Source: an archaeon (lineage in GTDB: Archaea; Thermoplasmatota; Thermoplasmata; JAJSAE01). Taken from it: 64,000 nucleotides of DNA. Positions 9,001 through 29,440 of the stretch are shown here, one piece after another; position 1 is the stretch's first letter, and the number at the start of each line of letters is the position of its first letter. Made by a program: the position numbers and the translations under genes. The stretch lies in NCBI GenBank assembly GCA_024281315.1, contig JAJSAE010000075.1:4222-68221 (forward strand). Direction: 5' to 3'. Under the pieces are notes generated by a model that saw nothing but the letters and a program-made list of their open reading frames with translations, searched no databases and had not been told where the DNA came from.

Positions 9001-12000
9001 CCGGGAACATAACCGTTGTTGCCTCCGTTGGCGACCCGAACCCTCTTACCAAGATTGGTGCGGATTTATATGCCACCAGAATTCATGTCTCCGAGGATCA
9101 GGCCATGAGGGTTCGTGAGGACCTGAACAACGACGGAGTGTTTGACTACAATATCAATCAGAATCTCGTGATAACCTCCGGAGGACTCAGTGGAACAGTA
9201 TTCTGGGACATGGACGGAGATAACTCGAGGAGCGCCCCCGATCAGACCATTGGCAGCGGACAATTGCTTCTTTCATACAGCAATGGAACCTTTGAAAAGA
9301 CCGTAAACATATCCGCAGACGGCCTGTTTGCCGCGGCCCACCTTATTCCGGGCAATTATCAGGCCAGCCTTCTGATGGATGGCATAACGATTCCTTCTTC
9401 GACAAAAATAGTGGTAAAAGAGGGAGAGACCGCCACGGTGAGTGTTGCCGTGCCAACGGGACATGTTGATGTTCTGGCAAGAAATACACAGGCTCAAAAC
9501 ATGAGCGTTTCCGTCTCTCTGAGGAATGTCACCACGGGAGATATAGTGGGACACATCACCACGGACATCAACGGCTCCGGCGTGATAGAGCCTCTGCTTC
9601 CGGGAAAATACGAACTCTCATCCTCAGATACCGAATATACATTTACACCTAGACTTGTTTCGGTGAGCAGTGGCCGGCATTCCGAGGTGAATGTAACTAT
9701 TTATGAAGGGGTTAATATTGCCGGTGTGGTGACTCTCAACTCGAGAGCGGTGGATGATGTAACTCTATTCTTTAACTGCAGGAACATGACCTACTCGGAC
9801 TCCGTAACCGTAAAGAACGGCATCTATTCGCTGTATTTGCCGCAGGGATATATCTTTGATATCTATTCTTTCTATGTTTCCGGCGACAGCCATTATGTCT
9901 ATGCGGGGAGTGTTTCCACCACCACTTCAATATCTATGGATATGGCACTTAAACCGGCATATCATATTTCCGGTGTGGCCCATCCGCCAACCAGCAGTAC
10001 GCAGGGCCTCAGGGGCGGAACAATCCATTTCTTCTCGGAGAACAGCGACATAAGGGCGGTAACCTATGTTGGCGGTGCCTACGATGTATGGCTCCCCGCA
10101 GGCTCGTATGATGTGTATCTCGGAGGGCCGCAGATATCTTTCACCGATAGAATTACTGTTTCCGGAGATATGGAATATAATCTCGACACGCACTACGGTT
10201 TCGAACTTTACGGATGGGTATGGCTTGATGCGGATAATAACGGAGAACTCGGCGGAAGTGAGATTCTGGATGGCGTCCCGCTCAGCATTATAAATTCGAG
10301 AGGGATTGCGGCACATGCAATCTCGAACAGAAGCAGTTATTCTGTTTACCTTGATCCTGGCGATTACACAATAAGAATTGATGACCCTCTCTATCAGAAC
10401 CTCTCGATCCCGTTTAAAATGCCTGCTATAAACATAACGAGAGACATAAAGGTGACTCTCAGAAATCTGACGGTATCGGGTCATGTTACAAGCGACGAGG
10501 GCCTCCCTCTCAGCGGCATAGATATATCATTACTGGCTCTGGATCAACACTCATCTTACCATGTCACTACAGACTCGGAAGGATATTACACCGTGGATGT
10601 AAGGCCTAACGATTACCGCCTACTGATTGATCAGAATGTTACTACCTGGATAAAGTATCTCTATGAAAATACTCTATCCGTGCCGGCCGGTTCTCACAAT
10701 CTGACAGAGGATATTACACTGAGTCAGCTGGTTTATGTGGGGGGAAATATCTCAAATCGCCCCTCCGAGAACTCAAGCACCGTTCTGCGGTTCATAGGTA
10801 AGGATAGCAGGAACATTACGGTGGAAGGGGGCGTATATGCCACATATCTGCACCCGGGCGATTACTCGGTGGAGGCGGTTTCCACCTTCAACGGCGTAAC
10901 ATACATGAATCTCTCGGTTATGACAGTCACTCTGTTCTCGTCCTCCCTCCATAATATCTCTCTTAAAACCACACATAAGCTGGAGGGCAGCATAGAATAT
11001 GGTGGACAGGTATTGAACAGAGATATAACACTGCATTTCACGACAAATAATGGCGCGTGGACGACTACCGTGACTCCGAACGGCCATTATTCCATTGCGC
11101 TTCCTGCCGGAAATTACAGTATATCCGGCGAACAGAGAGCGGTGGACATTGTGAACGGTGTGAAAAGATATGTGGTCTACAGTACCAGTGATTCGGTGAA
11201 CCTGACCTCGGATATGCTGCACACCATAAGCCTTTCCAGAGAGCTGGATAATTATACCTCCTTCGGTGTGATATCTGGCCTCAATGGCCTCGGTGTCCGG
11301 GCGAAATTGAGCTTTGTCGCTCTTAACGAAACAGCCATGGATCTCGAAGCGGAAAGCGGTTTCGACGGCTCTTATTCCGTCTCTCTTGCCCCAGGCCAAT
11401 ACTCTCTCTATGTGCTGAGGACGGAGGACAATTCTGCGGACGTAACGGTCTTCACGCAGACAACGCACGCAAATAACATGAACATCTCTTTGAAAAAAGG
11501 GCTTCAACTCAGAGGGTCCGTTTTAAGCGATACGGCCTCCCCGCTTCCCAATGCAGACATATCCGTTTCCGATTCCTCAGGGGTACTGGTGCGCGGTGCG
11601 GCCGATTCCGAGGCGAGCTATTTCATATACCTGCCGGCTGGCATCTACAATCTTTCCGCTCAGGGCTCCGTGGTTGAACATGGAAAGCAGATAAACTTTG
11701 CAGGAGAGAAGTATGTGGAACTTTTCGAGCCGCTCAGACAGGACATTGCCCTGAACAGAGATGTTGTGTACAGCTCCTCCATAAAATGGGACAGCAGGCA
11801 GGCTAGAACGGTTAAGGGCGGCGAAACGGTTAGCTATACATTTGTCGTGGAAAACACCGGCAATGTAAAGGATACATACGAGATATCCGCAAGCGTTCCG
11901 CAGGGCTGGTCTTATGAGGTAACAAAAAAGAATGTGACGCTTGATTTCGGCGAGATGAACAGCACAACAGTGGGCATTACCATTACGACCAGCAATAATT

Positions 12001-12602
12001 CTCTGGTGGAGCACAGCCCTGTTACGGTATATGCCATATCCAAGGTGAAGCCAAATACGCGCCCGGCCCAGATTCTGGACCTGAATATCGAACCGGAATA
12101 CGCCGTGGCCATTCTCGAGCAGGGCAGTGGGAACATAAGTGCCTCCTCGCTGAATTACAGGGTTCGTGTGGTGAATAACGGCAATATGAAGGACACATTT
12201 ACCCTAACCATATCAAATAAGAACGATTTAAGATCTCAGGGTTGGGATGCCGTTCTCATAGATCCTGTAACCCGTGCCGAAACCTCCGAAGCCATCGTTG
12301 ATGTGGATGCCCTCCAGGGTGCGGATATTACGATAATACTGAAGCCCATACAGACCTATCCGGCAGTTACCGCACCGGTCATACTCTATGCGGAGTCGGT
12401 GAACCACAATGTATCTTCGACCCATTCCCTCTCTCTTACTCTACCCGATCTGGCACCCTCCAGGAATTCCTTCAGTATAAGCGGGGAGGCGGTCAGTATG
12501 GTGGCCCCAGATTATTTGACCACTACTATGACACAAGTGGCCCTGCTTATAGTTCTAGCGGTGGCTGCCGTTTACCTTGCCAGAAAGAAGGGGGTGTTCT
12601 GA
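6021..12602 (+). CDS. aglB: AglB/STT3 archaeal oligosaccharyltransferase with a giant C-terminal beta-sandwich repeat extension and C-terminal TM anchor
   Basis: 2193-aa uninterrupted ORF. The N-terminal ~600 aa are multi-TM with the WWDYG motif (FVSWWDYGFE, about nt 7816). Downstream are tandem CarboxypepD_reg-like and CARDB/NEW3-like modules. The terminal hydrophobic helix (VALLIVLAVAAVYLARKKGVF) is followed by a TGA stop. Confidence 0.85.
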   Translation: MIIMAKMPKIRADKESKTVEKGHRPPFAGPVSQWLADNWGTLLLMLTIVGIAFFLRTYFGFGPATQNGFLVSGGSDSYYHKRIIDYALSTGHQLFQDPLINYPLSTRNPRPPLFVWSSVILGYIFSPLVGSVDVATWYAFLFNTAFWGSLTVIPVYFITKESFGKKAGFIAAFLLAIMPGHIERSVFSNADHDAMVQFFVVLSFFFLLKALKTINGSRWVKDWKKKDNVIDGLKSYFAANRTSLLYSMMAALSLSAIAMIWKGFSYVVVIILVYYLVDLIISRFKNRDTLGSTMVLAVSLSMFFLLIFPIYLNAHIVKTWYDVPLLMFLGLLFIGVIFTVTRDYPWTLVFGIFLIVMSLGYLIFMVLLPSIGEAILSGQGYLVQSKLYTTISEAQAPGFSHLAMSFGMVSFYLAFIGIAWAAIKIPKKASADFIFVVVWVAVAIYMATSAGRFVFNASPAFAIASGWILAMVIEALHLPEIKRNSRGFDWKHPWPTIKKAIKVRHVMGVIFVAFMIILPNVWFAVDAGIPYEVKRTYDNQINATLPSFIASPNRPANSMWYLGAFGYSLPLNSNYWPAAWRWFSSQDANIYPEADRPAFVSWWDYGFEAAQEGHHPTVADNFQNGYQWAGNVITAQNESETIALFEGRIIETAVLYGEKPEGRTVMPNMNPITLEQISALMDKYGIDTQRVIDIINNPQNYVDVVLENPDVYGYYNYDLSPINAKYAMLKVELSKIGEQKEVWMYNELRELTGDSIQYFAIDSRLFPFDARSTGIFYAPVKLSDRRIDNGTRNPIDFYDIKAVDEYGKEHALNEQLDPKLKITSYQIHYKDMFYNSMLYRSYIGYSAQDLGQADDTSIPGLSGSLQQQRPMQAWNMSHFKLVYVTAYYNPYPSDQVRDHPEAWTAVSYNDAAKYQQEIKAGNMTGVVDMTPGSGLKQGVVFVKYYDGALINGTVKMDTGTPVPGVRVTVLDEYGIPHASTISDDAGRYSLVSVAGNITVVASVGDPNPLTKIGADLYATRIHVSEDQAMRVREDLNNDGVFDYNINQNLVITSGGLSGTVFWDMDGDNSRSAPDQTIGSGQLLLSYSNGTFEKTVNISADGLFAAAHLIPGNYQASLLMDGITIPSSTKIVVKEGETATVSVAVPTGHVDVLARNTQAQNMSVSVSLRNVTTGDIVGHITTDINGSGVIEPLLPGKYELSSSDTEYTFTPRLVSVSSGRHSEVNVTIYEGVNIAGVVTLNSRAVDDVTLFFNCRNMTYSDSVTVKNGIYSLYLPQGYIFDIYSFYVSGDSHYVYAGSVSTTTSISMDMALKPAYHISGVAHPPTSSTQGLRGGTIHFFSENSDIRAVTYVGGAYDVWLPAGSYDVYLGGPQISFTDRITVSGDMEYNLDTHYGFELYGWVWLDADNNGELGGSEILDGVPLSIINSRGIAAHAISNRSSYSVYLDPGDYTIRIDDPLYQNLSIPFKMPAINITRDIKVTLRNLTVSGHVTSDEGLPLSGIDISLLALDQHSSYHVTTDSEGYYTVDVRPNDYRLLIDQNVTTWIKYLYENTLSVPAGSHNLTEDITLSQLVYVGGNISNRPSENSSTVLRFIGKDSRNITVEGGVYATYLHPGDYSVEAVSTFNGVTYMNLSVMTVTLFSSSLHNISLKTTHKLEGSIEYGGQVLNRDITLHFTTNNGAWTTTVTPNGHYSIALPAGNYSISGEQRAVDIVNGVKRYVVYSTSDSVNLTSDMLHTISLSRELDNYTSFGVISGLNGLGVRAKLSFVALNETAMDLEAESGFDGSYSVSLAPGQYSLYVLRTEDNSADVTVFTQTTHANNMNISLKKGLQLRGSVLSDTASPLPNADISVSDSSGVLVRGAADSEASYFIYLPAGIYNLSAQGSVVEHGKQINFAGEKYVELFEPLRQDIALNRDVVYSSSIKWDSRQARTVKGGETVSYTFVVENTGNVKDTYEISASVPQGWSYEVTKKNVTLDFGEMNSTTVGITITTSNNSLVEHSPVTVYAISKVKPNTRPAQILDLNIEPEYAVAILEQGSGNISASSLNYRVRVVNNGNMKDTFTLTISNKNDLRSQGWDAVLIDPVTRAETSEAIVDVDALQGADITIILKPIQTYPAVTAPVILYAESVNHNVSSTHSLSLTLPDLAPSRNSFSISGEAVSMVAPDYLTTTMTQVALLIVLAVAAVYLARKKGVF
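8890..12470 (+). repeat. protein-level tandem beta-sandwich repeats (CarboxypepD_reg-like and two CARDB/NEW3-like modules) within AglB, rich in N-x-S/T sequons
   Basis: Recurrent signatures such as GxV.D..G.PL.GA.V, VTTDSEGYYTVDVRPNDYRL, VVENTGNVKDTYEISASVPQGWSYEV and VVNNGNMKDTFTLTISN. I counted about 30 N-x-S/T sequons in the last ~1100 aa. Confidence 0.55.
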
Positions 12603-13375
12603 TGAAGGTTTCTGCGGCTCTGATTGTTATAATGGCCCTGCTGATGGTGTCTATCGTTCCCACCGGCCATGTTTCCGCAGTCGGTGATGTATTCATACGA
12701 CTTGATGGGCCCACCGCCCTTGCTACGGGAAGTTCTCAGATGTACACGCTTACCATCTCCGGCGGCCCGGCCGAACAGGGAGGAAACTTCTCCTACAGCA
12801 TAAGTCTGAGCGGCCTTAATACCACGGGAGCATCCGTATCGCCTATGACGGGAAACAGCACATCCGGTACATTTTCGCTCAATATAACCGCCCCAGACAT
12901 ACCGCAGACTCTGAAAGTAATGATTAACGCCACCTCCAGCAATTCGGCCAAGTCCGTTACGGTTGAAAAGACCTTTTCCATACGGGTACTGCGCCCCATC
13001 GTTATTTCTCAGGGCATACTCAACTCAGGGGATGTGGAGGCCAAAAATGTTCTTGTGAAGTTCTATGTGGACGACATCTTCATCGGCAGCAAAGTGGTTG
13101 ATGTTCCCGCAAAATCCAATGTTACCGTAAACTATGACTGGATTGTGGTGAACGAGAAGCCGGGCGAACATCAGGTCAAAGTGGTTATGGATGCGCAAAA
13201 TGAACTGGTGGAGCTGTCAGAAGGTAACAATGTGGCTTACCATACCATTTACATAACGGGCGGCAACACAATGGGCACTGTTTTATGGGCGACAATCGGG
13301 GGTCTGTTAGTTCTGCTGTTTCTGCTGTACAGCATGAAAGGCAAGAAAAAGAAGTATGCCAGAAAATACAGGTAG
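12602..13375 (+). CDS. secreted CARDB-domain surface (glyco)protein with C-terminal TM anchor
   Basis: Signal peptide MKVSAALIVIMALLMVSIVPTGHVSA. CARDB hallmark (VLVKFYVDDIFIG...VNYDWIV...ELSEGNNVAY). Six N-x-S/T sequons. C-terminal TM plus KGKKKKYARKYR tail. The start overlaps the aglB stop (TGATG). TAG stop. Confidence 0.7.
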   Translation: MKVSAALIVIMALLMVSIVPTGHVSAVGDVFIRLDGPTALATGSSQMYTLTISGGPAEQGGNFSYSISLSGLNTTGASVSPMTGNSTSGTFSLNITAPDIPQTLKVMINATSSNSAKSVTVEKTFSIRVLRPIVISQGILNSGDVEAKNVLVKFYVDDIFIGSKVVDVPAKSNVTVNYDWIVVNEKPGEHQVKVVMDAQNELVELSEGNNVAYHTIYITGGNTMGTVLWATIGGLLVLLFLLYSMKGKKKKYARKYR

Positions 13376-13444
13376 GCAGATGTTTCAAAACTCTTTCCCT
13401 TCTTTTCTCTTATTAACGCTTCCCTGCAAATTCTTATAATCCTT
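13376..13444. terminator. convergent intergenic region with an oligo-T/pyrimidine-rich tract
   Basis: It lies between convergent genes. The T-rich run tttcccttcttttctcttatt is typical of archaeal oligo-T terminators. Confidence 0.25.
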
Positions 13445-14020
13445 TTAACCCTTTATAAGTTCTCTGGAGATCATATCGAAATATCTGGTTGCCCCCTCCT
13501 GAAGAAGCCTTTTTTTGAACGGAGGCAGAATCATATAACCGTGATTTTTGGAGAGGTCCAGCGGTTTTCTTTTGAACTCGTCTTCGTACATAAAGCCGTT
13601 TTTCTCGAAGAATCTCTCTGCGGAGTGGTTGAGAGGTTTGGCGATTATATAACCGGGCACCTGAAGACTTCCCAGCAGCAGAAGGCGAAAACCGATCTTT
13701 TTTTCTCTAAGCCCCTTTATGGTTTCAATGGAGCGCAGGACATATACGGGAGCCCCGTCCTTGGCATTCTCGTACCATTCTTCTATGAAAACCCATGAAA
13801 CAATGGTTCGCTCGTCTGCTGCAATTATAAGAATAGGCCTTGGAAACCGTCTCAGCCACGCCTTAAAGGCCTTGCGATAGTCGGTGATGCCTACTCCGCG
13901 GAAGAATTCGAATCCGTCGTCATCATTGTTCTCTCTGCACGGAATCTTGAAACGGTCCACCTCAGAGGCCTGCTCTATTTTTATGAAGTTATACTTCCCA
14001 CGGCTTGCCAGAACTTTCAC
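13445..14020 (-). CDS. GNAT-family N-acetyltransferase (putative)
   Basis: 191 aa. Motif A-like IKGLREKKIGFRLLLLG and motif B-like NHSAERFFEKNGF. Confidence 0.45.
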   Translation of the reverse strand: MKVLASRGKYNFIKIEQASEVDRFKIPCRENNDDDGFEFFRGVGITDYRKAFKAWLRRFPRPILIIAADERTIVSWVFIEEWYENAKDGAPVYVLRSIETIKGLREKKIGFRLLLLGSLQVPGYIIAKPLNHSAERFFEKNGFMYEDEFKRKPLDLSKNHGYMILPPFKKRLLQEGATRYFDMISRELIKG

Positions 14021-14062
14021 ACGAATCTCCTCTGAATAATAGGAAAAGGGTTTTTTTCCGGT

Positions 14063-14683
14063 TCAGTAGAGAATCCATATGCAGGCATTGTTCCTTAGAA
14101 CCATGTTCAGGTCGGTATTGGTGACACCTGCCTTTTCGAGGAGTATTGGTTTCCACTCGTCAGGGGCTATCTTTTTGGAACCGTCAGGGGCAACCGCAGC
14201 CAGTTGTGCGTACTTAAGCCTCTTCTTCGCCACTGTTATCCTTTCCGCCGCCGCTGCTCTGAAGGTCTGACATATAATACACTGGGTATCATTGACTCCG
14301 GGCTTTACGGTTGAGTTGTAGTAATCGGCAACCTCTTTGTGCACCCTCGCAAAATCTCCTATTCTCTTGGTGTACTCCTTCCAGCCGCGCTCGAACGGAC
14401 ATTTGTGTGTTACCATACAGTGGTTCGTTTTGGCCCGAACACTTTCGAATGTAGATATTATCGACTCCCCTTTTTCGAGAGATTCAACAAAATCCTCCCA
14501 TGTCTTATATTCCTCTTCAGGCATGCTCTTGGCCAATGAGGTGGCGAGGCTGATGAGATAGTTGTTCATTCCAGCAGCACCCTGCTTATCCGCAATGTCC
14601 TCAAGGAAGAGATAGGCAGCAACATCCACCAGTGGGTTCTCTTTTATTTCATATTCCTTATGTATCTCCCTTTCTTCTATCAT
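14063..14683 (-). CDS. hypothetical Cys-motif protein, paralogue A (possible V4R-like)
   Basis: 206 aa. Shares with the adjacent gene the motifs YNSTVK..(x).DTQCIICQTF and LRNNACIWIL versus YNNSVKDTAICNFCVIHQKF and LRNYACVFAIL. Its start overlaps the neighbour's stop (ATGA). Confidence 0.5.
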   Translation of the reverse strand: MIEEREIHKEYEIKENPLVDVAAYLFLEDIADKQGAAGMNNYLISLATSLAKSMPEEEYKTWEDFVESLEKGESIISTFESVRAKTNHCMVTHKCPFERGWKEYTKRIGDFARVHKEVADYYNSTVKPGVNDTQCIICQTFRAAAAERITVAKKRLKYAQLAAVAPDGSKKIAPDEWKPILLEKAGVTNTDLNMVLRNNACIWILY

Positions 14684-15312
14684 TCTTCCACCTCCTCTTC
14701 GCCCTTAAGCCTTGCACCTTTCATAAGAATGGCAAAGACGCAGGCATAGTTTCTCAGCAGGCTTCTGACATATTCCGGATTTATTCCTATTCTCTTCAGG
14801 CTATCCCTTGCAATCTTCGTCTCACCCTTAAATCCTCTGTCTGCCAGCTGCACGCATTCGAGGGGTTGGTCGGCTACGGTTATGTTCTTGGCTACCTCTT
14901 CTCTGAACTTCTGGTGGATTACGCAGAAGTTGCAGATTGCAGTATCCTTGACGCTGTTATTGTACTCCTCGGCCACAGCGGCATCGGCCTGCGGAACATC
15001 TCCCACACTGTATCTGACCCTTTGCATGGTAGGTTCAAAGACACAGGTTTTCAGAGCATATATGTAGCCCACCACATCTCCGTCGACATCCGTTACTGCC
15101 AGATCGGTCAGTGGGGTTACATCGCCCTCAATTGAGTATGCCGTCCTTCCTTCTCTCAGGGCCACATTGAACGAGGGCCAGCCCATATAGGCTTCCTTCC
15201 CCATCCTCATGGCCAGACTTTCTCCAACTCTTTCCCAGTACTGTATAGTACCTTCCACTCCTGCTTTTTCGCTCATATCCTGTATAAGCGAGACCAGAGC
15301 CACATCAAGCAT
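14680..15312 (-). CDS. hypothetical Cys-motif protein, paralogue B (possible V4R-like)
   Basis: 210 aa. Tandem duplicate of 14063-14683 with the same conserved Cys-containing motifs. Confidence 0.5.
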   Translation of the reverse strand: MLDVALVSLIQDMSEKAGVEGTIQYWERVGESLAMRMGKEAYMGWPSFNVALREGRTAYSIEGDVTPLTDLAVTDVDGDVVGYIYALKTCVFEPTMQRVRYSVGDVPQADAAVAEEYNNSVKDTAICNFCVIHQKFREEVAKNITVADQPLECVQLADRGFKGETKIARDSLKRIGINPEYVRSLLRNYACVFAILMKGARLKGEEEVEE

Positions 15313-15334
15313 TTATTCACCTCCTTTTTCCATG

Positions 15335-17335
15335 TTAATCACCTTTATCTTCTTTCTTCTCTTTTTTATTCTTCTTAATTCTTTTATATAGGGTTCGTCT
15401 GCCGCTCTGAACGGCGGTTGCCTCTCCCCTGTCTATAAGCATCTTTATCCCCATAAGGATATCAGTATATTTGATTCCCTTTGCCCCCCCTCTTATTCTG
15501 GCCATTGTGAGGCCGTTTTCTTCGGGCAGGATTTCTAAAATCTTTGTCAGTATCTCCTCATCGACATCTCCAATATCTTCCTCCGCTCTTTTTGCCGGCT
15601 CTTTTTTCAGCTCTTTGTCGCTATCTTTTCTGTTCTTTTTAGCTTTGACAGCCGCCTTTTCTTTATTCTTTGTTTCATCGGTTCCAGTGATTTTTTCGGG
15701 CTCCGGCGCGGGTGGCTTCTTTCTTTCCCCCTTCTTTGCTTTCGATTTCTTGGATTTTTTGCTCTTTTTCCCCCCGCCTTTTTCAGTCTTTTCAAGAACT
15801 GCCTTTTCTTGTCCCGTGCCCTTTTCTTCCGGGACCGCTCCCTTTTCGGAAACGGAAGGACTCTTTTCTACGCCCGGAACTTCTTTCGCTCTTTCCGTTA
15901 TTTCTCCTTCAGTTTTCCGCATTTCGGGAATCTCGGCCCTCTCTCCGGCAGGGCGGTAATATTTGATGGTCTTTCCTTTTTTCTTTTCGAATATGATTTT
16001 CTCATCTGCCAGCGCTTTAATCTTTTCTTTAAGCGTATCTTTATCCATAACTCCTGAGAGTTTTTTCGCCATGGCCGCGGCGCTCATCGCTTTCTCTTCT
16101 GTTTCCGGCACCGCATAATATATGAATTCGCTCTCTTCATCCAGTTCGCCCAGCCTTTTTCTGGAGGTAATGGTTTCCGTTACGCTCTCCGCTTTTTCTT
16201 CGAGACCTAGATGTTTTACGAGCATGTCTATTTTTGCCCCGTACAGCCCACCTTTCATCTCGCTCATCGCTTTCATGTTGTCAATTTCCTCACGGAGGCG
16301 CTCCTGTCCCTCTCCTATCTCTCTGAGCATTGATGCAAGCTCGTTCTTCTCTGTAGCCCCTATTTTGTCCTCGGTCAGCTTTTCCAGCTCTTTTTTGATG
16401 TCTGATATGGCAGAGTCATAGCGTAGATACATCTTCTTTTCAATGTCTCTGGCGGTCCGATCCATCTGCATTCCCTTTGCATTCAATTGCGCGGAGAGAG
16501 CGGCCACCAGCTGGTTTGTCTGGTTCACTCTCTTCTCCATCTGATCCACCTTCTCCAGAAGGAATGATGTTTTGTCCACCGTGTACTCCTGACTCTTAAT
16601 TTTTATCATGGCTCTGAAGTTTTTGGCCTTGTGATAAGGTATGTATTCCGTGAGTTTGTCCAGAAGAACATCGTATGTGGTCTGTATCTGTTTGGACGAA
16701 ATAAGCCCTTCGGACAGGCTTTTTGCGAGATTATTTGTGCGGATTCTCCGGTTGTTATCGAAACGGAAGAGTTCGCTACCACTGGTCATGAGCCTTACTT
16801 CTTCCAGAGTCTCAGTTATGACTCTCTCGAAATCCCCGGGTCCGAGGCTTTTCCAGAGTTCGCCGACAAGGTCGTCAAGTGTGGACTGATAGACGATTTC
16901 CAGGATATTCGGAGGAATTTTGGAGACATCGAGACTCTCACCGTATCCGACCTCGCTCATTATATCATCTATTTTGTTGTCTATCTTTTCGATGCTGCGT
17001 TCCACATTTTTTCTGTTTTTCTTTTCTTCCGCCTTCTCTGCTTCCATCTCGGTCTTCAGCCGCAGAAGGTGCTCTTCCCTGTTCTTAGTCTCTTCTTTGA
17101 TACTTTCTAACTCTTTTTTCACATCATTGAGATTTTTGAAGTACTCCTCGAACTGACTGTATATCGTATCAAGGCGCTCCAGCACCTCATCCTTCAGCTG
17201 CTTTATGGCATCCAATCCGTCTTCTTTCTGCTGGCTACTCTGGGAATACTCTTCGTTCTGGGGCCTTCCTTCCGTCTCTCCTACCGCATCTTTCATACAA
17301 AACTCCTCAGTTTCCGATCGAGTTCCGGAATCCAT
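15335..17335 (-). CDS. long coiled-coil protein with Lys-rich low-complexity linker and C-terminal winged-helix-like domain
   Basis: 666 aa with very high E/K content and heptad-like segments. KKSKKSKKSKAKKGERKK region, then a C-terminal LTMARIRGGAKGIKYTDILMGIKMLIDRGEA module. Its 5' end overlaps the roadblock gene's 3' end. Confidence 0.6.
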   Translation of the reverse strand: MDSGTRSETEEFCMKDAVGETEGRPQNEEYSQSSQQKEDGLDAIKQLKDEVLERLDTIYSQFEEYFKNLNDVKKELESIKEETKNREEHLLRLKTEMEAEKAEEKKNRKNVERSIEKIDNKIDDIMSEVGYGESLDVSKIPPNILEIVYQSTLDDLVGELWKSLGPGDFERVITETLEEVRLMTSGSELFRFDNNRRIRTNNLAKSLSEGLISSKQIQTTYDVLLDKLTEYIPYHKAKNFRAMIKIKSQEYTVDKTSFLLEKVDQMEKRVNQTNQLVAALSAQLNAKGMQMDRTARDIEKKMYLRYDSAISDIKKELEKLTEDKIGATEKNELASMLREIGEGQERLREEIDNMKAMSEMKGGLYGAKIDMLVKHLGLEEKAESVTETITSRKRLGELDEESEFIYYAVPETEEKAMSAAAMAKKLSGVMDKDTLKEKIKALADEKIIFEKKKGKTIKYYRPAGERAEIPEMRKTEGEITERAKEVPGVEKSPSVSEKGAVPEEKGTGQEKAVLEKTEKGGGKKSKKSKKSKAKKGERKKPPAPEPEKITGTDETKNKEKAAVKAKKNRKDSDKELKKEPAKRAEEDIGDVDEEILTKILEILPEENGLTMARIRGGAKGIKYTDILMGIKMLIDRGEATAVQSGRRTLYKRIKKNKKEKKEDKGD

Positions 17336-18087
17336 GTGTTAATACATTCGTCGGCGAGTATATCCCCTCTCAGCTTCCTAATATGATTTTCTATAACCTT
17401 TTCCATGAACATGGCCCACAGCCTGTCGGTCATGTACGCGGCGCTGGTCCCCATCTCGTTGAACGAAAGTGTGATAATTTCATCTACCTGCCCCACGCCC
17501 ACGGTTTCGGCCACTTTCTTCTTTATGAACTCCAGAATCTCCATGTTCTTCTTGTATTTTCGCGTATGTTTGAATTGTTCTACAAAGAGCTGGCGGCTCA
17601 GTCTTCTGAGTTCGTTGGCAACATCATCGGGTAGAGCTGCAAGGGTAGTGCTATCCATTCTTCTCAGTTCGAAAACATGTTTAAGTACCGCACTGCCGGT
17701 CAGAAGTCTTTTCACGGTTTCGTCCATATCGGTGGGGTCAACATCCTGTGCAAATAGAGAAGCCAGAAAGGCATTGTCCCCGATTCCGGTTATTATCAGC
17801 ACCCCTTCCTTATACTTCTCAATTGCAAGGGTCAGATTCTCGTTCTTCAGCTGTCCGCAGATATATGGTTTCTTCGCCTTCATCAGATTTAGCATAAAGA
17901 ACTGGGGCGGCGTCAGCTGCGGCGGTATGAGGGAGGCGAAAACTCTGCCATCAACGCCGATGAACATCAGTATGTCGATGTTGTTCTCTTCCCGCATATG
18001 CTTCAATTCCATGTTCAGCATGTGCTTTAGAAGAGTGACATCCTCTGCCTCGAGGGTCTTGTCCATCTTCTTAAGGGTTTTCTCCAT
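17293..18087 (-). CDS. Roadblock/LC7 (MglB-like) domain protein with C-terminal extension
   Basis: 264 aa. IDILMFIGVDGRVFASLIP...GVLIITGIGDNAFLASLF matches the Roadblock/LC7 pattern. Confidence 0.55.
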   Translation of the reverse strand: MEKTLKKMDKTLEAEDVTLLKHMLNMELKHMREENNIDILMFIGVDGRVFASLIPPQLTPPQFFMLNLMKAKKPYICGQLKNENLTLAIEKYKEGVLIITGIGDNAFLASLFAQDVDPTDMDETVKRLLTGSAVLKHVFELRRMDSTTLAALPDDVANELRRLSRQLFVEQFKHTRKYKKNMEILEFIKKKVAETVGVGQVDEIITLSFNEMGTSAAYMTDRLWAMFMEKVIENHIRKLRGDILADECINTWIPELDRKLRSFV

Positions 18088-18095
18088 TCTCTCAC

Positions 18096-18971
18096 CTACT
18101 TCAGGCCGTACGAGTCGAAGATTATTTGGAGTGCTTCCTCCGGCGAGTAGTCGTAGTTCCAGTTCTCTTTCATGGCCGTAATTCTCTCTATTACATACTC
18201 GGGAGCCTTGATGAATTTTGCCGTCTTTATGGCTTCGTCGAATATCTTGTCGTAGTCCTTCCCTTCTTCCTCCGTTTTTTCCACTGGATATGCCCTTACC
18301 ACAATACCGACTCCTCTGGAGAATATATAGGGATATACTCCTTCGCCATGCTGGGTTCCTCTCATCTTTATTATATTGAGAGTCCTGTTAAAAGCACCCC
18401 CAATGGGATAGTATTCCAGATGGAATACACCATCAGCCAGATATATCGGCAGAAGCACATCTTCTCCGATGGTCTCCCCAGGCTTGCTGTGTTCCTCAAC
18501 CGTAGCCATGACAACACCGAGTTCCTTCAGGGTGTAGAACAGTTTTCCGATGAGTTCTCTCTGTTCCAGTTTATTTTCGGTGGCCCATATGACCGGTGTC
18601 ATGGGGTCTATGACCACTCTCGTCTTTATGTCGTAATCGCTCCTTGCCTTCACCAACTGGGGCAGCTGCTCTTCTATCATCTTCTTGAAGTTTTTCCCCT
18701 TCAGGTGAATGAAGAACAGATTCTTTTCGTAGTGCTTTTCCATGTCCCAGCCCATCATCTTTGCCTCTTTCATTATCTGCTCGGGCGACTCTTCCATGGT
18801 TACATAGAGACCCTGTTCTCCGTTGTCAATACCGTGCATTAAGAACTGCATGGCAAAGGTGGTTTTTCCAGTCCCGCTGGACCCTACCACTACGATTGCA
18901 CTTTTATCTATCAGGCCCCCCTCTATCAACTGATCCAGGCCATATATTCCCGTTTTTATTCGCTCAACCAT
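18096..18971 (-). CDS. KaiC-like/RecA-superfamily ATPase (single domain)
   Basis: 291 aa. Walker A VVGSSGTGKTT, Walker B-like RVVIDPMT, overall KaiC/RadB-like layout. TAG stop immediately followed by an in-frame TGA. Confidence 0.75.
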   Translation of the reverse strand: MVERIKTGIYGLDQLIEGGLIDKSAIVVVGSSGTGKTTFAMQFLMHGIDNGEQGLYVTMEESPEQIMKEAKMMGWDMEKHYEKNLFFIHLKGKNFKKMIEEQLPQLVKARSDYDIKTRVVIDPMTPVIWATENKLEQRELIGKLFYTLKELGVVMATVEEHSKPGETIGEDVLLPIYLADGVFHLEYYPIGGAFNRTLNIIKMRGTQHGEGVYPYIFSRGVGIVVRAYPVEKTEEEGKDYDKIFDEAIKTAKFIKAPEYVIERITAMKENWNYDYSPEEALQIIFDSYGLK

Positions 18972-18994
18972 TCTCCTACCTCCTTTTATTAGTA

Positions 18995-19885
18995 TTATTC
19001 CTCATCTTCTTTATTAATCTGCTTGCTTAGAAGTTCCGCAAAACTCCTGCTCTTTTTTGCTTCTTCTGAAAGGTTCACAACCTTTTCCTCATCAACCTCA
19101 TACATGGGTTCCTTGAAAGTAGCACTCTCAAAGGCCACCGCAAAGGATTCCGAAGCGGCGATCGCGGATGTGATCTTTTGCATATCCTCCCACGGCGCTG
19201 GAAAGTCTTCTTCTGCAGAGACCTGATTCTTCATATACATGTAATATGTCTCGCCAACCTCGGTGACCCTGTGTTCTTTGTCTATAATCTTGTAATTTTT
19301 AAGGACGGAGAGGCGGTACTCCATCTCCTCCATGCCCATCTCCAGCTCTCTCGATATCTCCCCGACTCCTTTCCCGTGCCGGAGTTCTCTTATTATCTCT
19401 CTGTCTATGGTGTCCAGAGCGATTTTATATACCGCAAGAGGCTGTATGGCCACGATGAATGTGCATCTATCTGCTCCCTCATTCATGCAGATTGTCTCTT
19501 TCGCTTCCGACGGCAGTCCGAGATCCTTTGTAAAGAACTCTTCCAGCGCGTCGCTAGTTATATAGCATGTCTTTTTTCCTTTAAGCCGGTATGCTTTCGC
19601 CACGGGATTCTCAGGCACGGAGAATACATATCTGAAATTCTCTACTCTTGTTATCTCCATCCTGCCGAGACCGATGTTCTCGAAGAGGTCGGTCATGAAT
19701 TGATAGAGCGGCGTGTTCGATATTTCCGTGGCATTGGCGCACTTCAGCATCTTTCTCACTTCCGATGGCGGTACGCGAGAACTCTCCAGTGCCGCCCTAA
19801 TTGCCGAGTCTATCTTTGTAAGCTTTCCGAGAACGGCAAGCCCTTCGGCAAAGGATTCGAAGTTGCCAAGTTCCCCTTCCTTCAT
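18995..19885 (-). CDS. V4R-domain protein with HTH region
   Basis: 296 aa. KGKKTCYITSDALEEF...ETICMNEGADRCTFIV fits the V4R C...G...C.F signature. Central DREIIRELRHGKGVGEISRELEM is HTH-like. Confidence 0.55.
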   Translation of the reverse strand: MKEGELGNFESFAEGLAVLGKLTKIDSAIRAALESSRVPPSEVRKMLKCANATEISNTPLYQFMTDLFENIGLGRMEITRVENFRYVFSVPENPVAKAYRLKGKKTCYITSDALEEFFTKDLGLPSEAKETICMNEGADRCTFIVAIQPLAVYKIALDTIDREIIRELRHGKGVGEISRELEMGMEEMEYRLSVLKNYKIIDKEHRVTEVGETYYMYMKNQVSAEEDFPAPWEDMQKITSAIAASESFAVAFESATFKEPMYEVDEEKVVNLSEEAKKSRSFAELLSKQINKEDEE

Positions 19886-20448
19886 TAGATATCCCCCCTG
19901 AGTTTTATGATGAATTTTCTGTCCTCCTCACCAAGAATCGAAATGCCTCTTTCGGTGATGTTTTCCCCGGAAATGTATCCCTCGCCTTCCGCTTTTTCTA
20001 TAAGATGATATATTCTCCTTTCGTCTGTTTTCATGAGGGAGGAGATGAGAAGCGGCGAGTGTAATCCTACCCCCCATAGTTTTACCAGATTTATCAGTTC
20101 GTCATCCTCTCCCGTTGTCACCAGTTGTGGCAGAAGAAAATGTCTTAATGCCATGAGTGTTTCCGCTCTTTCTCCCGACACTTCGATGTCCAATGCGGGT
20201 ATATTGATGCGCAGCCTCGGAGGGTCGTCCTCGGTAATGGTCATATCTATTATTTTTTCTATGGGAATTTCATACCATACATTTCCGTCAGATATCATGA
20301 TCCCAGACATGGCCAGATATATCTTCCCCTCTTTCCACACGAGACCTATGTTTATCCCGGAGTCTCTGGGACTTATTGCGAACTTGACTTCTTCGAGTTG
20401 GTATGCCTTCATGAATGGCCTCCTTTCTCCTCTTATAGTCGGATGCAA
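19885..20448 (-). CDS. hypothetical protein (first gene of the operon; possible wHTH at C-terminus)
   Basis: 187-aa ORF. Its stop overlaps the downstream start, and the AT-rich putative promoter lies directly upstream. Confidence 0.4.
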   Translation of the reverse strand: MHPTIRGERRPFMKAYQLEEVKFAISPRDSGINIGLVWKEGKIYLAMSGIMISDGNVWYEIPIEKIIDMTITEDDPPRLRINIPALDIEVSGERAETLMALRHFLLPQLVTTGEDDELINLVKLWGVGLHSPLLISSLMKTDERRIYHLIEKAEGEGYISGENITERGISILGEEDRKFIIKLRGDI

Positions 20449-20620
20449 ATAGGCCCCATAGTTTATATATCTTTCGCTCTTTCTCTAAAAATATTGATTA
20501 TGGTTAGATAAATAAAAAATAAGAGCCAGACATAATAAGACAGAATTATGGTGTAAAATGTAAAATAAAAAATGAGATGTGAATCGTTAATACGAGTGTC
20601 ACGAAAAAAAATCCTCTTTT
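20449..20620 (-). promoter_or_regulatory. AT-rich intergenic spacer with TATA-like elements (putative promoter of the 20448-15335 operon and terminator of the upstream cassette)
   Basis: 172 nt that are strikingly AT-rich against a ~52% GC background. Contains tttatatat, aaataaaaaataag and oligo-A/T runs. Confidence 0.3.
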
Positions 20621-21064
20621 TCAGTCGTCGAATCGTATCAAAATTTCAGAGGTTCTGGCGATGGAAATCTTCTTTCTGCCGCTTGTGCGAAAGCATATCA
20701 ATCCTGTTTTTTCAAGAGCCAGAAGGTCGTCATAGACATTCTTGTAGTTTCGTTTCAGTGCTATGGTTAGAGCCATGACCGATTCCCCCCCGGTCCTGTG
20801 TATATGTTCCAGAAGTTCGAGCCTTCTCGTTGTAAGTTGATCCATCATCTCGGCATTTTTCCAGATATGGGCCTCCGTCAGGGCGGCGTCTTTCTTTTCG
20901 ATGCCTTTCCATATCATGTAATCATCCACCATCTCGGGCGATGTGCACTTTCTCATGGCGACCTTCTGCTGAAGAGATGTGAGGCTTCCGTATCTTTTTT
21001 TTAGCTGAGCCACCAGTTCTTCTTTTTCTTCACGGCTGTAAGTAATCTTGGACTCTATTCTCAT
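20621..21064 (-). CDS. winged-HTH transcriptional regulator (small)
   Basis: 147 aa. C-terminal RLELLEHIHRTGGESVMALTIALKRNYKNVYDDLLALEKTGLI is wHTH-like. Confidence 0.4.
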   Translation of the reverse strand: MRIESKITYSREEKEELVAQLKKRYGSLTSLQQKVAMRKCTSPEMVDDYMIWKGIEKKDAALTEAHIWKNAEMMDQLTTRRLELLEHIHRTGGESVMALTIALKRNYKNVYDDLLALEKTGLICFRTSGRKKISIARTSEILIRFDD

Positions 21065-21072
21065 GTAACCAC

Positions 21073-21372
21073 CTACAAATCCTCCAGCTCCATGGCCACA
21101 AGGTTTCTTCTGAAAATGGCCACAATCTTGCTCACCTCTTCCAGGCTCTTTTCCTGCACGCTTTTCTGCTCTATTAAAGCACCGTTGGAGTCGTATTTGT
21201 CCACATGCGGCTGCCCTTCGAAATTATCCCATCTCACCTGATTTTCCCATCCGTTTTTTCCGAGAGTTCTGTATGTATAACTATAGTATCTCCTTCGTTT
21301 TCCTTCTGTTATTTCAATTGCATCAATAACCTCATCTCTGTGCATCCATACACGCGTTCTCTGTATCTCCAT
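21073..21372 (-). CDS. hypothetical small protein (99 aa) paired with the wHTH regulator
   Basis: The ORF lies 8 nt upstream of the regulator gene on the same strand. I recognise no motif. Confidence 0.3.
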   Translation of the reverse strand: MEIQRTRVWMHRDEVIDAIEITEGKRRRYYSYTYRTLGKNGWENQVRWDNFEGQPHVDKYDSNGALIEQKSVQEKSLEEVSKIVAIFRRNLVAMELEDL

Positions 21373-21413
21373 GAGAGGGTGATTGCACAGGCAGTAGATA
21401 AATCTTGCTTTTT

Positions 21414-22484
21414 TCAGAACGAATAGTAGTCTCCGAGAATGCCCTTACGTTCTTTTATTTTTTTCCGGACAATGCTGTATGTCTTTTCCGTTCCGAGAAC
21501 TCTCACGCTCAGCCGGTCAAGGCCGGACGAATACGGCAGAACCCATCCCCCCATACCGGCAAGGAGGCTGTGTGTAAGTTTTCCGTTACTGTTGCTGCTG
21601 TATCCTCCCTCCATTATGATGCTGAACTTCCCTGCCGCCCTACGCCTCAGAAAGTCACCGAAAAAGTAGAATCCTTCCTCCGAGACCTGAAGACCCGCGT
21701 AGTTGTCGCTGTAGTGTGAATCGAAGCCGTTTATTCCGAGTACGAAATCGGGCGAAAATTCCTTCATGACCGGCTCCACAATCTCCTGAAATACGAGTTT
21801 ATACTCCCGGTCTCCACTCCCTTTTGGCATCTCCACATTGATGTTATACCCCCGCCCGTCCCCGCTGCCAATCTGATACGCGAATCCTTCGTGCGGATAG
21901 AACTCGTGCGGGTCCCGGTGTATCGATAGGGTAAGTACTGTGGGGTTGTCGTAGAATATGCTGCTGGTCCCGTTTCCGGCGTGTGCGTCCCAATCGATAA
22001 ACATTATTCTCTTCTTTCTCATTCTCTGGAGATGCCTTGCCGTCACGGCTCCGTTGTTGAAGATACAGTAGCCGCTGTATCTGTCCCGGGTTGCGTGGTG
22101 GCCGGGCGGCCTGACAAATGCGAAGGTGCTCTCGTACTCTCCTTTAACCACCATCTCCGCTGCAATTATAGCACCCTGTGCCGCTGTCCTTGCCACCGAA
22201 TAAGTTGACGGAGAGAAGTAGGTACTGTCCCCCAGAAATCCTCCTCCTTTACTGCAGTAGTCCCTTACAAAATCCACATAAAGCCGGTCGTGAACCGCAT
22301 TTATCTCTTCTATTCCGGCCTCTCCGAAGTCCTCTCTGAGGTCTACGCGGTCTCTGGAAAAAAGGTCCGTTCTCGCTTTCAGGAACCGCAGGGCTTTTTC
22401 GATTCTCTCCGGATTTTCAGGGCTGAAACTGGCTGCTTTGTGCGATATGTTGTTGGGGTTGTGGAGCAGTGCGATTCGGGCCAT
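21414..22484 (-). CDS. histone deacetylase-family enzyme (acetoin utilisation AcuC/acetylpolyamine amidohydrolase-like)
   Basis: 356 aa. RPPGHHA and IDWDAHAGNGT (metal-binding D.H...D) signatures of the arginase/deacetylase fold. Confidence 0.8.
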   Translation of the reverse strand: MARIALLHNPNNISHKAASFSPENPERIEKALRFLKARTDLFSRDRVDLREDFGEAGIEEINAVHDRLYVDFVRDYCSKGGGFLGDSTYFSPSTYSVARTAAQGAIIAAEMVVKGEYESTFAFVRPPGHHATRDRYSGYCIFNNGAVTARHLQRMRKKRIMFIDWDAHAGNGTSSIFYDNPTVLTLSIHRDPHEFYPHEGFAYQIGSGDGRGYNINVEMPKGSGDREYKLVFQEIVEPVMKEFSPDFVLGINGFDSHYSDNYAGLQVSEEGFYFFGDFLRRRAAGKFSIIMEGGYSSNSNGKLTHSLLAGMGGWVLPYSSGLDRLSVRVLGTEKTYSIVRKKIKERKGILGDYYSF

Positions 22485-22501
22485 GTTTCCGGGAGCACAT
22501 C

Positions 22502-23815
22502 CTAGAGGATTGATAAAAAGGTTTTGACCTCCCAGTCCGTTACCTGAGCCCGGTATTCATTCCACTCCTTATGCTTTACATGTAGAAAATGGTCTGTTAT
22601 GTGGTCCCCCAGCACATTGCGCATGAACTCGCTCTTTTCCAGATAAGACAGAGCGTGTCCGAGATTACCGGGAAGCGTTTCGATGCCGTTGTCCTTTCTT
22701 TTGAAGATGTTTCCCTCTACGGATGCCGGTGGCTCAATCTCTCTTTTTATTCCGTCGAGACCGGATGCCAGAAGCACGGCGAACTGAAGATACGGGTTTC
22801 CGGCCGGGTCGGGATTTCTCACCTCAAGCCTTGTGCTCTGCCCTCTGCCGGCAGGCACTCTTATCAGCGCACTCCTGTTGAGATGGGCCCAACTGATGTA
22901 AACCGGTGCTTCGTATCCGGGAATAAGCCTCTTGTACGAGTTTACCCATGATGCAAGGATTGCACAGTTCTCCTGTGCGTGTTCCAGCAGACCCCCTATG
23001 TAGTATCTGGCAGTCTGGCTCAGGCCGCCCAGGGCGTTCTCATCGTAGAAAGCATTCCTGCCGTTAAAGTCCTCCAGTGACTGATGGACATGCATTCCGT
23101 TTCCGTTCACGCCGTATATTGGCTTAGGCATGAAGGATGCAAACAGGCGGTGCTTCATGGCTACGGTCTTTATGGCGAACTCAAGAATCATAACTCTATC
23201 GGCGGAGGTCATGGCATCTGCATATCTCAGGTCTATTTCATGCTGGCCCGGCGCGACCTCGTGATGCGTTGTCTCCACATTGAATCCCATCCCGTCCAGT
23301 ATGAGGGCGCTCTCCTTTCTTACCTGCTCCGCTCTGTCCTCAGCGGTGAGGTCAAAGTACCCTCCGTAGTCATCGGGTCTGGCGGTTATCTCTCCCTTCT
23401 CGTTCAGGCGGAACAGAAAGAACTCGAATTCCGGCCCCGTGTTGAATCGGAACCCCATCTTTTCCGCATCTTTCATGGCTCTCTCCAGAACATATCTGGG
23501 GTCCCCGTCAAATCTATTTCCCGTCGAATCGTGGATATTGCAGATGAGGCCAGCGGTTTTCGTCCTTTCGCCGCTCCACGGAAAGATGTGAAACGCATTC
23601 AGGTCGGGATAGGCCCGCATGTCGGATTCGTCTATGGTTGCATAGCCCGCAATGGAGGAACCGTCGAATAATACGCCGTCGTCGATTGCCTTTTCCAGCT
23701 GTTTGGCAGGGATGGAGACACTCTTGACCCTCCCGAGAATGTCCATGAACTGCATTTCTATGAACTTTATCCCCTCTCTCTCCACCTCTTCCAGTATATC
23801 GTCTTTTTCTGTCAT
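22502..23815 (-). CDS. glnA: glutamine synthetase type I
   Basis: 437 aa. FDGSSI, FMPKPIYGVNGNGMHVHQS and NPYL motifs. Confidence 0.9.
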   Translation of the reverse strand: MTEKDDILEEVEREGIKFIEMQFMDILGRVKSVSIPAKQLEKAIDDGVLFDGSSIAGYATIDESDMRAYPDLNAFHIFPWSGERTKTAGLICNIHDSTGNRFDGDPRYVLERAMKDAEKMGFRFNTGPEFEFFLFRLNEKGEITARPDDYGGYFDLTAEDRAEQVRKESALILDGMGFNVETTHHEVAPGQHEIDLRYADAMTSADRVMILEFAIKTVAMKHRLFASFMPKPIYGVNGNGMHVHQSLEDFNGRNAFYDENALGGLSQTARYYIGGLLEHAQENCAILASWVNSYKRLIPGYEAPVYISWAHLNRSALIRVPAGRGQSTRLEVRNPDPAGNPYLQFAVLLASGLDGIKREIEPPASVEGNIFKRKDNGIETLPGNLGHALSYLEKSEFMRNVLGDHITDHFLHVKHKEWNEYRAQVTDWEVKTFLSIL

Positions 23816-23816
23816 T

Positions 23817-28741: not shown

Positions 28742-29440
28742 CTACTCGAATATCGGGCCGAGGACCCTTATGCCCCCCTTGCCCACCTCTATTGCGTGCT
28801 TCTCCATGCTGTGCTGGGATGCCCTCATCTTCTCCACCTGAAGATATCTGGTGAGTTTTCCCCTGCTCCTGTCAAGCCCCAGAAGAATTATGCCGTCCAC
28901 AAGGAAGCCCTCGTTTCCGAGGAGTTGGGACGGTTCTCCGGGAATTCTCTCCATTATCACAAAGGAATAAAGGTTGTTTTCTCTCAGCATCTTGAAGAAG
29001 TAGAACATCTTCTTTCTCATGTCCTCTTCATGCTCCATTAGAGAGTAAATGGCGCCGAGAGAATCGAGTGCGAATATGGAGAACTGGTCCTTCTTTTTCT
29101 TCTTGAAGTGAACAATCATCTTCTCTATGAACTGAAGATAATCCGTGCCCTCGTCGTCAACCACGGCATCAATGTCTCTCAGGTCGGTAAAGTCCGATAT
29201 CTGCATGTTTCGGGTGAGTTTTACCCCGAGGCTCTTCATGTTCGTGAGGTGGCTGTCCACTGTTTCTTCGAGGGTGGTATACAGGCCGAACTCTCCGGTC
29301 GCATCCAGATACCTGGACATGAGCGTATACACGAAACTGGTCTTCATGGAGCCGGGGGGGCCTGTAATCAGGATAACCTTCGGTTTGCCGATATCCGTTT
29401 TGAATATCTTGTCGAGTCCTTCTATGGAATTCTTGAACAT
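28742..29440 (-). CDS. KaiC-like/RecA-superfamily ATPase (short, single domain)
   Basis: 232 aa. Walker A ILITGPPGSMKTSF, Walker B-like SIFALDSLG. KaiC-like profile. Confidence 0.7.
   Translation of the reverse strand: MFKNSIEGLDKIFKTDIGKPKVILITGPPGSMKTSFVYTLMSRYLDATGEFGLYTTLEETVDSHLTNMKSLGVKLTRNMQISDFTDLRDIDAVVDDEGTDYLQFIEKMIVHFKKKKKDQFSIFALDSLGAIYSLMEHEEDMRKKMFYFFKMLRENNLYSFVIMERIPGEPSQLLGNEGFLVDGIILLGLDRSRGKLTRYLQVEKMRASQHSMEKHAIEVGKGGIRVLGPIFE

Follow-up and report, generated by a model that had tools for sequence, protein, structure and literature searches.

KaiC-like ATPases have been proposed to act as hubs of archaeal signal transduction (Makarova, Galperin & Koonin 2017, as cited in PMC5847659), and Roadblock domains have been implicated in the regulation of NTPases (Koonin & Aravind 2000, as cited in PMC3149612). 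In the conservons of actinobacteria, the histidine kinase (HK)-like CvnA is encoded together with the MglB-type CvnB, the DUF742 protein CvnC and the Ras-like CvnD (PMC13343842), the methanogen redox regulator MsvR combines a V4R domain with DNA binding (PMC3729527), and Roadblock and TRAPPC3 components of Asgard archaea have been reported as non-operonic (PMC2253512, PMC10933270). Here we describe an operon for a KaiC-like ATPase, a Roadblock-like protein and V4R-fold proteins in a stretch of 64,000 nucleotides (the window; contig JAJSAE010000075.1, positions 4,222 to 68,221) from an archaeon of the Thermoplasmatota, five genes of which had been described in an initial annotation as a candidate signalling or nucleoid-associated module. 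From the gene content, order, coupling, conservation, folds, fusions and cis elements observed in the window and in related genomes, we consider it an evenly balanced proposition that the operon encodes a clade-specific, vertically conserved signalling complex, in which a KaiC switch would be regulated by a platform of Roadblock and V4R/Bet3-fold proteins, with winged helix-turn-helix (wHTH) domains as output and acetylation as an additional layer.

The operon consists of eight tightly packed and translationally coupled genes on the minus strand (g1 to g8, window positions 20412-13445; Table 1), in the order wHTH protein g1, V4R and wHTH protein g2, KaiC ATPase g3, Roadblock-like g4, coiled-coil and wHTH protein g5, paralogues g6 and g7, and GNAT acetyltransferase g8. 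The five minus-strand open reading frames (ORFs) of the initial annotation were all present, and its junctions were borne out on direct reading: g1 and g2 overlap in TAATG at 19885, g2 and g3 are 23 nt apart (18995/18971), g3 and g4 8 nt apart (18096/18087), and the overlap placed at 17293-17335 is an ATGA in which the ATG of g5 at 17296 lies on the stop of g4 at 17293. The operon itself was therefore correctly recognised, but five genes are too few. Past position 15335 follow g6 after a gap of 22 nt, g7 with an ATGA overlap and g8 after 42 nt, and these three genes belong to the operon because of the short gaps and the overlap, their ribosome-binding sites and their conservation along with g1-g5. 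This gives eight genes, or eleven with the frequent upstream neighbours up1 to up3; g6 and g7 (the most conserved genes besides KaiC, with a predicted V4R/Bet3 fold), the GNAT and the upstream deacetylase had all been overlooked. A GGAGG-like ribosome-binding site precedes each of the eight starts. Two starts had to be revised, as g1, initially read as 187 amino acids (aa) from a TTG at 20448, begins at ATG 20412 behind an aggagg, with orthologues beginning MKA, and g5, initially 666 aa, begins at its Met14 (653 aa) in agreement with an identical database protein (P0001) and orthologues. The end of the operon was set at 13445, since the next downstream gene is convergent, and a T8 run lies 3' of the stop of up1, that is, after the gene preceding the operon. 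A single BRE/TATA promoter (BRE, B recognition element) driving all eight genes is the best explanation of this layout. No RNA family was found by an Rfam scan of 13000-23000, the window holds no tRNA, integrase or repeats, and a scan for bacterial-type promoters and terminators was uninformative, with matches below shuffle expectation.

When one genome per species (GTDB) was scanned with the g5 core, 46 loci were obtained, all from metagenome-assembled genomes of uncultured Thermoplasmata/Thermoplasmatota, and gene presence and order were read from phmmer searches in which the window proteins were run against every ORF of the loci. The genes g1 to g8 had identical order and strand in 46/46 loci and were never rearranged, which is far beyond chance, as it holds for all 46 related loci. 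The co-occurrence on which the initial annotation had made its proposal depend was found in every related genome sampled. The complete set was present in 36 loci, the other ten being truncated by the contig at one or both ends, and in two of these ten a gene was undetected inside the available sequence (g7 in L029 and g1 in L047). L029 (3803-5077) is the sole locus without g7 between g6 and g8, which are 72 nt apart there, reflecting either a real deletion or an assembly artefact. Mean pairwise identity was highest for g6 (0.83), g3 (0.74) and g7 (0.69), intermediate for the deacetylase up3 (0.52), g4 (0.51), g8 (0.49), the DUF7718-like up2 (0.47) and g2 (0.46), and lowest for g1 and the wHTH protein up1 (0.37 each) and g5 (0.32). 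Conservation ends sharply at the deacetylase on one side and at g8 on the other. Family-level searches returned unnamed or 'hypothetical' proteins alone (132 matches for g5, 226 for g6 and 185 for g4). The combination had not been recognised as a described system initially, and indeed no account of it was found in the searchable literature; the 2017 survey of archaeal KaiC-like ATPases lies outside this comparison, so that earlier cataloguing is possible.

g6 is predicted to adopt the two-layer alpha/beta fold of V4R, Bet3 (TRAPPC3), H-NOX and BcsD, with BcsD and CeSD as its best structural matches, and we place both g6 and g7 in this fold group. At the sequence level they do not join V4R or Bet3, as neither protein matched any family in Pfam or NCBIfam. 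An hhalign comparison of g6/g7 with the g2 family gave a probability of 0.4% and hence no homology within the operon, the g6/g7 profile found nothing significant among PDB sequences, and none of ten distant g6-like relatives scanned had a V4R match in Pfam. The family is small: no more than 118 proteins were recovered when 1.84 billion representatives were searched exhaustively by profile. Among the distant relatives, the g6-like domain is fused to KaiC (P0433), to an Arf-type GTPase through a linker (P0458) and to a DUF7347 domain (P0442), and in two Asgard proteins of 492-510 aa (P0439 and P0469, Hodarchaeales/Thorarchaeota) it forms the C-terminus after a region of about 300 aa. This region looks like a degenerate GTPase by eye, and the gene of P0469 (L052:1443-2975) adjoins a gene for one protein with TrmB-wHTH and Arf/Ras/Roc parts. 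A Roadblock domain in the middle segments of the GTPase and Asgard fusions was considered by eye, but neither Pfam nor hhalign gave an assignment, and it is not claimed here. Stand-alone g6-like genes lie directly downstream of Robl_LC7 genes (L048-L051), in one case with a GNAT beside the pair and an Arf/RagA-like GTPase about 4 kb off (L050), or are paired with a V4R gene (L055/56). A compact run of seven genes in a JGI metagenome (3300037673, L053:1126-5576) encodes KaiC, a KaiC/Arf-Ras GTPase fusion, Robl_LC7, ORFs of 139 and 111 aa, V4R and a g6-like protein. From these contexts, the association of an NTPase (KaiC or small GTPase) with Roadblock, V4R and g6-like proteins recurs independently, and nowhere among them is it as elaborate or as rigidly conserved as in the Thermoplasmatota operon.

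The ATPase g3 matched KaiC (PF06745) with 171.6 bits (cutoff 26.6, E=2e-50), in line with its initial description as a single-domain KaiC-like ATPase with the Walker A motif GSSGTGKTT. No variation was seen among 37 orthologues in Walker A (GxSGTGKTTF), the EES glutamates, Walker B (IDP) or KxRxTxH and, judged by these motifs, g3 is catalytically intact. It scored below the cutoff of every NCBIfam KaiC model that it matched, including KaiC_arch and thermo_KaiC, and reached 137.7 vs 408 and 96.7 vs 546.25 bits for the clock KaiC equivalog models. Another single-domain KaiC paralogue, shorter than g3 (232 aa; 28742-29440, minus strand; PF06745 6e-33), is encoded at a distance of about 6 kb on the upstream side; it matched in 13 loci, merely by cross-matching with g3, and was rejected as a cluster member. 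The initial call of g4 as a Roadblock/LC7 protein is putative. Robl_LC7 (PF03259) gave no Pfam match in the window protein, and the assignment of the N-terminal half comes from four weak but concordant lines of sequence comparison: a profile match to PDB 7f8m (Robl_LC7; E=0.16, residues 39-119), Pfam Robl_LC7 matches in 2/29 orthologues (best E=0.009), JGI labels of Roadblock/LC7/MglB on three orthologues, and, in a small database, a match of the g4 hidden Markov model (E=2e-4) to a protein that Pfam annotates as Robl_LC7 and whose gene lies beside a distant g6-like gene.

The V4R and HTH protein of the initial annotation, g2, matched V4R (PF02830) above cutoff (34.7 vs 31 bits, E=1.9e-8), and all 28 orthologues compared retain its cysteines C107, C133 and C141. 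The V4R region also matched the MsvR model (1.7e-7), with 31 bits vs an equivalog cutoff of 220, and residues 155-215 form a wHTH that matches Csa3/CARF-type modules (6e-7). Three 'SFAE' motifs were seen in all g2 orthologues, FxSFAE (about residues 10-15), IAASxSFAEA (about 243-251) and KSKSFAELLSK (about 278-288), which could be docking or phospho-acceptor sites. g1 is kept in 39 loci, and its orthologue in L001 gave a weak wHTH-PRTase_assc match.

For g5, no known family was found in Pfam, NCBIfam and further library scans, and the gene is ATGA-coupled to g4 and has no promoter of its own, which agrees with the initial proposal. Its invariant core carries the motifs GESLDVSKIPPNILEIVY...TSGSELFRFD...KNFRAMIKIKSQEY and is confidently predicted as a helical domain for which the structure comparison returned no relative; a profile-profile comparison of the core with g4 gave no homology. 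The ABC-type ATPase head and the hinge that flank the coiled coil in SMC proteins were not found in g5. The winged-helix-like domain described at its end is supported in orthologues. The Lys/Glu-rich segment is likewise present in the window protein (KKSKKSKKSKAKK tract; 27% K+R and 22% E+D over about 130-135 aa). The nucleoid-like role attached to it did not hold up, as a comparable K/R-rich tract occurs in about 8/37 lineages only; being lineage-specific, it is not central to the mechanism. About 11/37 g5 orthologues have an N-terminal zinc-finger motif (CxxCG-x8-LKxH-x3-C; carriers L004, L005, L014, L022, L023, L026, L027, L031, L037 and L044), which the window g5 lacks.

The AT-rich, promoter-like spacer of 172 nt noticed initially has a GC content of 27-31% vs 47% for the operon and includes a BRE/TATA-like element. 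Other loci have an equivalent cGAAA...TATATAAA/TTTTTAA/TATTTAAA upstream of the g1 start, at about 35-65 nt in most of them. Two direct copies of a bipartite box, 46-49 nt apart, precede the g1 BRE/TATA in 36/36 loci with enough flank (the window and loci within L002-L045), while the core motif was found in a mean of 2.0/36 loci in shuffled controls. In the 64-kb window, ACCATAAT occurs three times, twice at the g1 promoter. The boxes, a candidate operator pair kept throughout the clade, are probably bound by one of the wHTH proteins of the cluster, and the operon may be autoregulated through them. As the boxes are also present in loci without an adjacent up1, the binder would more likely be g1 or g2, or be encoded elsewhere. 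A loosened box pattern was too degenerate for a regulon to be defined beyond the g1 promoter.

Table 1. Genes and cis elements of the operon and its frequent upstream neighbours (window positions)
Feature	Position	Strand	Description
g1	19885-20412	-	175 aa; beta-rich N-terminal domain, AERLLALRHLLLPYI helix, C-terminal wHTH-like domain
g2	18995-19885	-	V4R domain (three invariant Cys), wHTH, three 'SFAE' motifs
g3	18096-18971	-	Single-domain KaiC-like RecA-superfamily ATPase, 291 aa; C-terminal extension of about 65 aa
g4	17293-18087	-	N-terminal half Roadblock/LC7-like; conserved C-terminal half of about 140 aa
g5	15335-17296	-	653 aa; coiled coil, invariant helical core of about 150 aa (predicted), coiled coil, wHTH, Lys-rich tract, wHTH
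g6	14680-15312	-	210 aa; predicted V4R/Bet3/H-NOX/BcsD fold; Cys motif CxF...FCVIHQxFR...C...C; most conserved cluster gene
g7	14063-14683	-	206 aa; g6 paralogue (about 30% identity, cross-matches E~1e-15); ATGA-coupled to g6
g8	13445-14020	-	GNAT-family acetyltransferase, last operon gene
BRE/TATA-like element	20462-20477	-	gcgaaag-atatataaa, read directly
Proximal box	20497-20517	-	Same bipartite motif as distal box, about 34 nt upstream of TATA
Distal box	20545-20565	-	TTTAC-N6-A(T/C)ACCATAA, about 20 bp; candidate operator or upstream activating sequence
up1	20621-21064	-	HVO_A0114-type wHTH (PF25212, 8e-16); frequent neighbour, 28 loci; T8 run follows
up2	21073-21372	-	DUF7718-like, 99 aa (PF24839, E=5e-4); paired with up1; 26 loci
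up3	21414-22484	-	Hist_deacetyl, HDAC/AcuC-type (PF00850, 281 bits, 1e-83); 23 loci, same strand

The last gene, g8, was assigned to the GNAT family through its orthologues, 25/26 of which matched Acetyltransf_1 (PF00583, best 7e-7) and 15 PF13508; the window protein itself reached 18.7 bits, just below the cutoff of 20.7, and g8 matched Naa50 in the PDB weakly (0.023). Upstream of the promoter, the DUF7718 protein up2 showed a faint match to the TumE toxin (E=0.032). The pair of up2 and up1 has the look of a toxin-antitoxin system and, found beside the operon in 26-28 loci, is unusually stable for such a pair. The glutamine synthetase gene 17 nt upstream of the deacetylase was rejected as an operon member, as it is common to one locus only; together with a PolD small-subunit-like gene it occupies 22502-25292 (minus strand), an adjacency common only to the closest relative L002. 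On the other side of the operon, an ORF of 2193 aa (6021-12602, plus strand) combines an N-terminal STT3 oligosaccharyltransferase domain with many CarboxypepD_reg/TTR-like repeats and is directly followed by a CARDB-domain protein (12602-13375). In one subclade (L003:11200-12735, L006:7067-8599, L010:11181-12722, L015:11416-12957, minus strand) an ORF of about 510 aa with a weak KaiC-like match (E~1e-5 to 1e-6) is convergent directly past g8, and the upstream deacetylase trio is missing there.

In the signalling complex that we propose, the nucleotide or oligomeric state of g3 would be controlled by a platform of g4 and g6/g7, the latter forming a probable heterodimer with a Cys/Zn or ligand-binding site. 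Such a platform would be analogous to the Roadblock/longin and Bet3-fold platforms that act on small GTPases in MglB, Ragulator and TRAPP. Sensing and DNA binding may be provided by g2, a canonical V4R-wHTH protein, and by g1, and g5, which has one or two wHTH domains besides its new invariant core, could serve as scaffold or output arm. KaiC may act on this coiled-coil scaffold, as initially suggested. Reversible acetylation might be added by the g8 GNAT and, in most lineages, by the adjacent HDAC-type deacetylase. Candidate substrates within the cluster would be the Lys tract of g5 and the invariant N-terminus of g6 (ML...), the latter in view of the weak similarity of g8 to Naa50, which acetylates N-termini. 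Expression would come from one BRE/TATA promoter controlled via the two upstream boxes. The physical complex, the direction of signalling, DNA as the output, the target of acetylation and the physiological role are what we infer from the observed features.

Several points weigh against this proposal. Complex formation and co-expression are deduced from sequences and predicted folds, and the Roadblock call for g4, itself sequence-based, stayed below significance in each single test. wHTH domains can also serve protein-protein contacts instead of DNA binding, and the deacetylase trio is missing beside the operon in about one quarter of the loci. For signalling proteins, g6 (83%) and KaiC (74%) are unusually well conserved, and such identities would suit a structural machine too. 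KaiC might then provide the power to assemble or remodel a scaffold of g5 and BcsD-like g6/g7 that is cytoskeleton-like or organises the chromosome, an explanation that we judge unlikely overall: g6, KaiC and g7 (69%) lie far above the regulators g1 and g2 (37-46%), the best structural matches of g6, BcsD and CeSD, form octamers and filaments, g5 is long, coiled-coil and wHTH-bearing, and the operon is single-copy in the only complete-chromosome context examined. However, library scans of the cluster proteins found no cytoskeletal, SMC-head, kleisin or membrane-anchoring domain, the accessory genes encode folds usual for signalling and regulation (V4R, Roadblock, wHTH, GNAT), and distant g6-like domains keep regulatory company (GTPases, Roadblock).

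High conservation of a KaiC core with two small partners is also a feature of KaiABC, and a post-translational timer, with a phosphorylation or ATPase cycle of g3, with g4, g6 and g7 as KaiB/KaiA-like partners and with a wHTH output, would agree with the intact catalytic Glu pair and other KaiC motifs and with an autoregulation-ready operon with conserved operator boxes. We regard it as improbable, since g3 has one KaiC domain and scores far below the cutoffs of the clock models, autophosphorylation sites are not identifiable in it, and no KaiA or KaiB fold or family was found among the cluster proteins in Pfam and NCBIfam. Still less credit is given to a mobile defence or toxin-antitoxin island built from a KaiC-like NTPase, wHTH proteins and the DUF7718/TumE-like pair. 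Such an island is suggested by the faint TumE match and by the resemblance of the wHTH modules to Csa3/CARF output domains, but PADLOC gave generic wHTH or P-loop similarity and no system match, 46 species-level genomes have the same order and borders under strong purifying conservation, and the flanks are housekeeping genes (PolD, GlnA) with no integrase, repeats or tRNA. The signalling complex is the explanation that we prefer.

The eukaryotic TRAPP and Ragulator platforms later arose from V4R and Roadblock folds, and an operon that unites KaiC with Roadblock and V4R/Bet3-fold proteins offers a tractable route to the long-standing question of how prokaryotic V4R and Roadblock proteins act on NTPases. 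All related genomes sampled from a large group of uncultured archaea (Thermoplasmatota of sediment, soda lakes and groundwater) have the operon. In conservation, two of its proteins are roughly on a par with core cellular machinery, yet each of its members is annotated as 'hypothetical', and the conserved two-box promoter is a directly testable DNA target. A further-reaching and rather doubtful possibility is a new class of archaeal NTPase-regulatory machine, in which a TRAPP/Ragulator-like platform (g6/g7 heterodimer and g4) would be wired to KaiC instead of a small GTPase, with scaffold and acetylation added. The g6-like domain would in that case be an NTPase-partner module of ancient origin, found also in the GTPase-linked proteins of Asgard archaea, and the operon would provide a prokaryotic, operon-encoded experimental model of how platforms of Bet3-fold and Roadblock proteins control nucleotide switches.

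Compared with known systems, the operon is like the proposed KaiC hubs in that genes for sensor-type and wHTH output domains accompany that of a single-domain KaiC/RecA-superfamily ATPase. It differs in its partners (Roadblock-like g4, the new g6/g7 family, the g5 core, GNAT and deacetylase) and in its strict eight-gene order, for which the searchable literature yielded no description. With MglA/MglB and the conservons it shares an operon of NTPase, Roadblock-type regulator (putative in g4), sensor-type protein and proteins of little-known function. Its NTPase, however, is a KaiC ATPase and not a Ras-like GTPase, it has neither an HK-like CvnA nor DUF742, the Roadblock-like component alone is common with conservons, and it adds three V4R-fold proteins, a coiled-coil scaffold and acetylation enzymes. 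In TRAPP, Ragulator and the Asgard Roadblock/TRAPPC3 proteins (PMC2253512, PMC10933270), Bet3/V4R-fold subunits, often paralogous dimers with a Cys/Zn site, also regulate an NTPase together with Roadblock/longin-type proteins, and the Arf-type GTPase fusion and the two Asgard proteins with a C-terminal g6-like domain add to this likeness. Unlike TRAPP, the operon encodes no small GTPase or longin family detectable in Pfam and NCBIfam, g6/g7 lack Bet3 or V4R sequence membership, a membrane or trafficking link is not evident, and the resemblance is architectural only; unlike in Asgard archaea, the components are strictly operonic in Thermoplasmatota. g2 joins a V4R domain with conserved cysteines to a wHTH as MsvR does, but in reversed order (V4R, then wHTH), with the extra SFAE motifs and within a KaiC operon. 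A KaiC-family ATPase with small, highly conserved partners is also found in the KaiABC clock, from which the single KaiC domain of g3, the lack of KaiA/KaiB homologues and the different partner folds set the operon apart, and g5 shares a long coiled coil, DNA-binding-type wHTH domains and, in some lineages, a Lys-rich tract with SMC-like and other coiled-coil chromatin proteins. The operon would work like MglAB/conservons and TRAPP/Ragulator and fits the proposal of KaiC hubs but belongs to none of them, nor to KaiABC or SMC proteins, and with the g5 core and g6/g7 it contributes two new protein families or domains.

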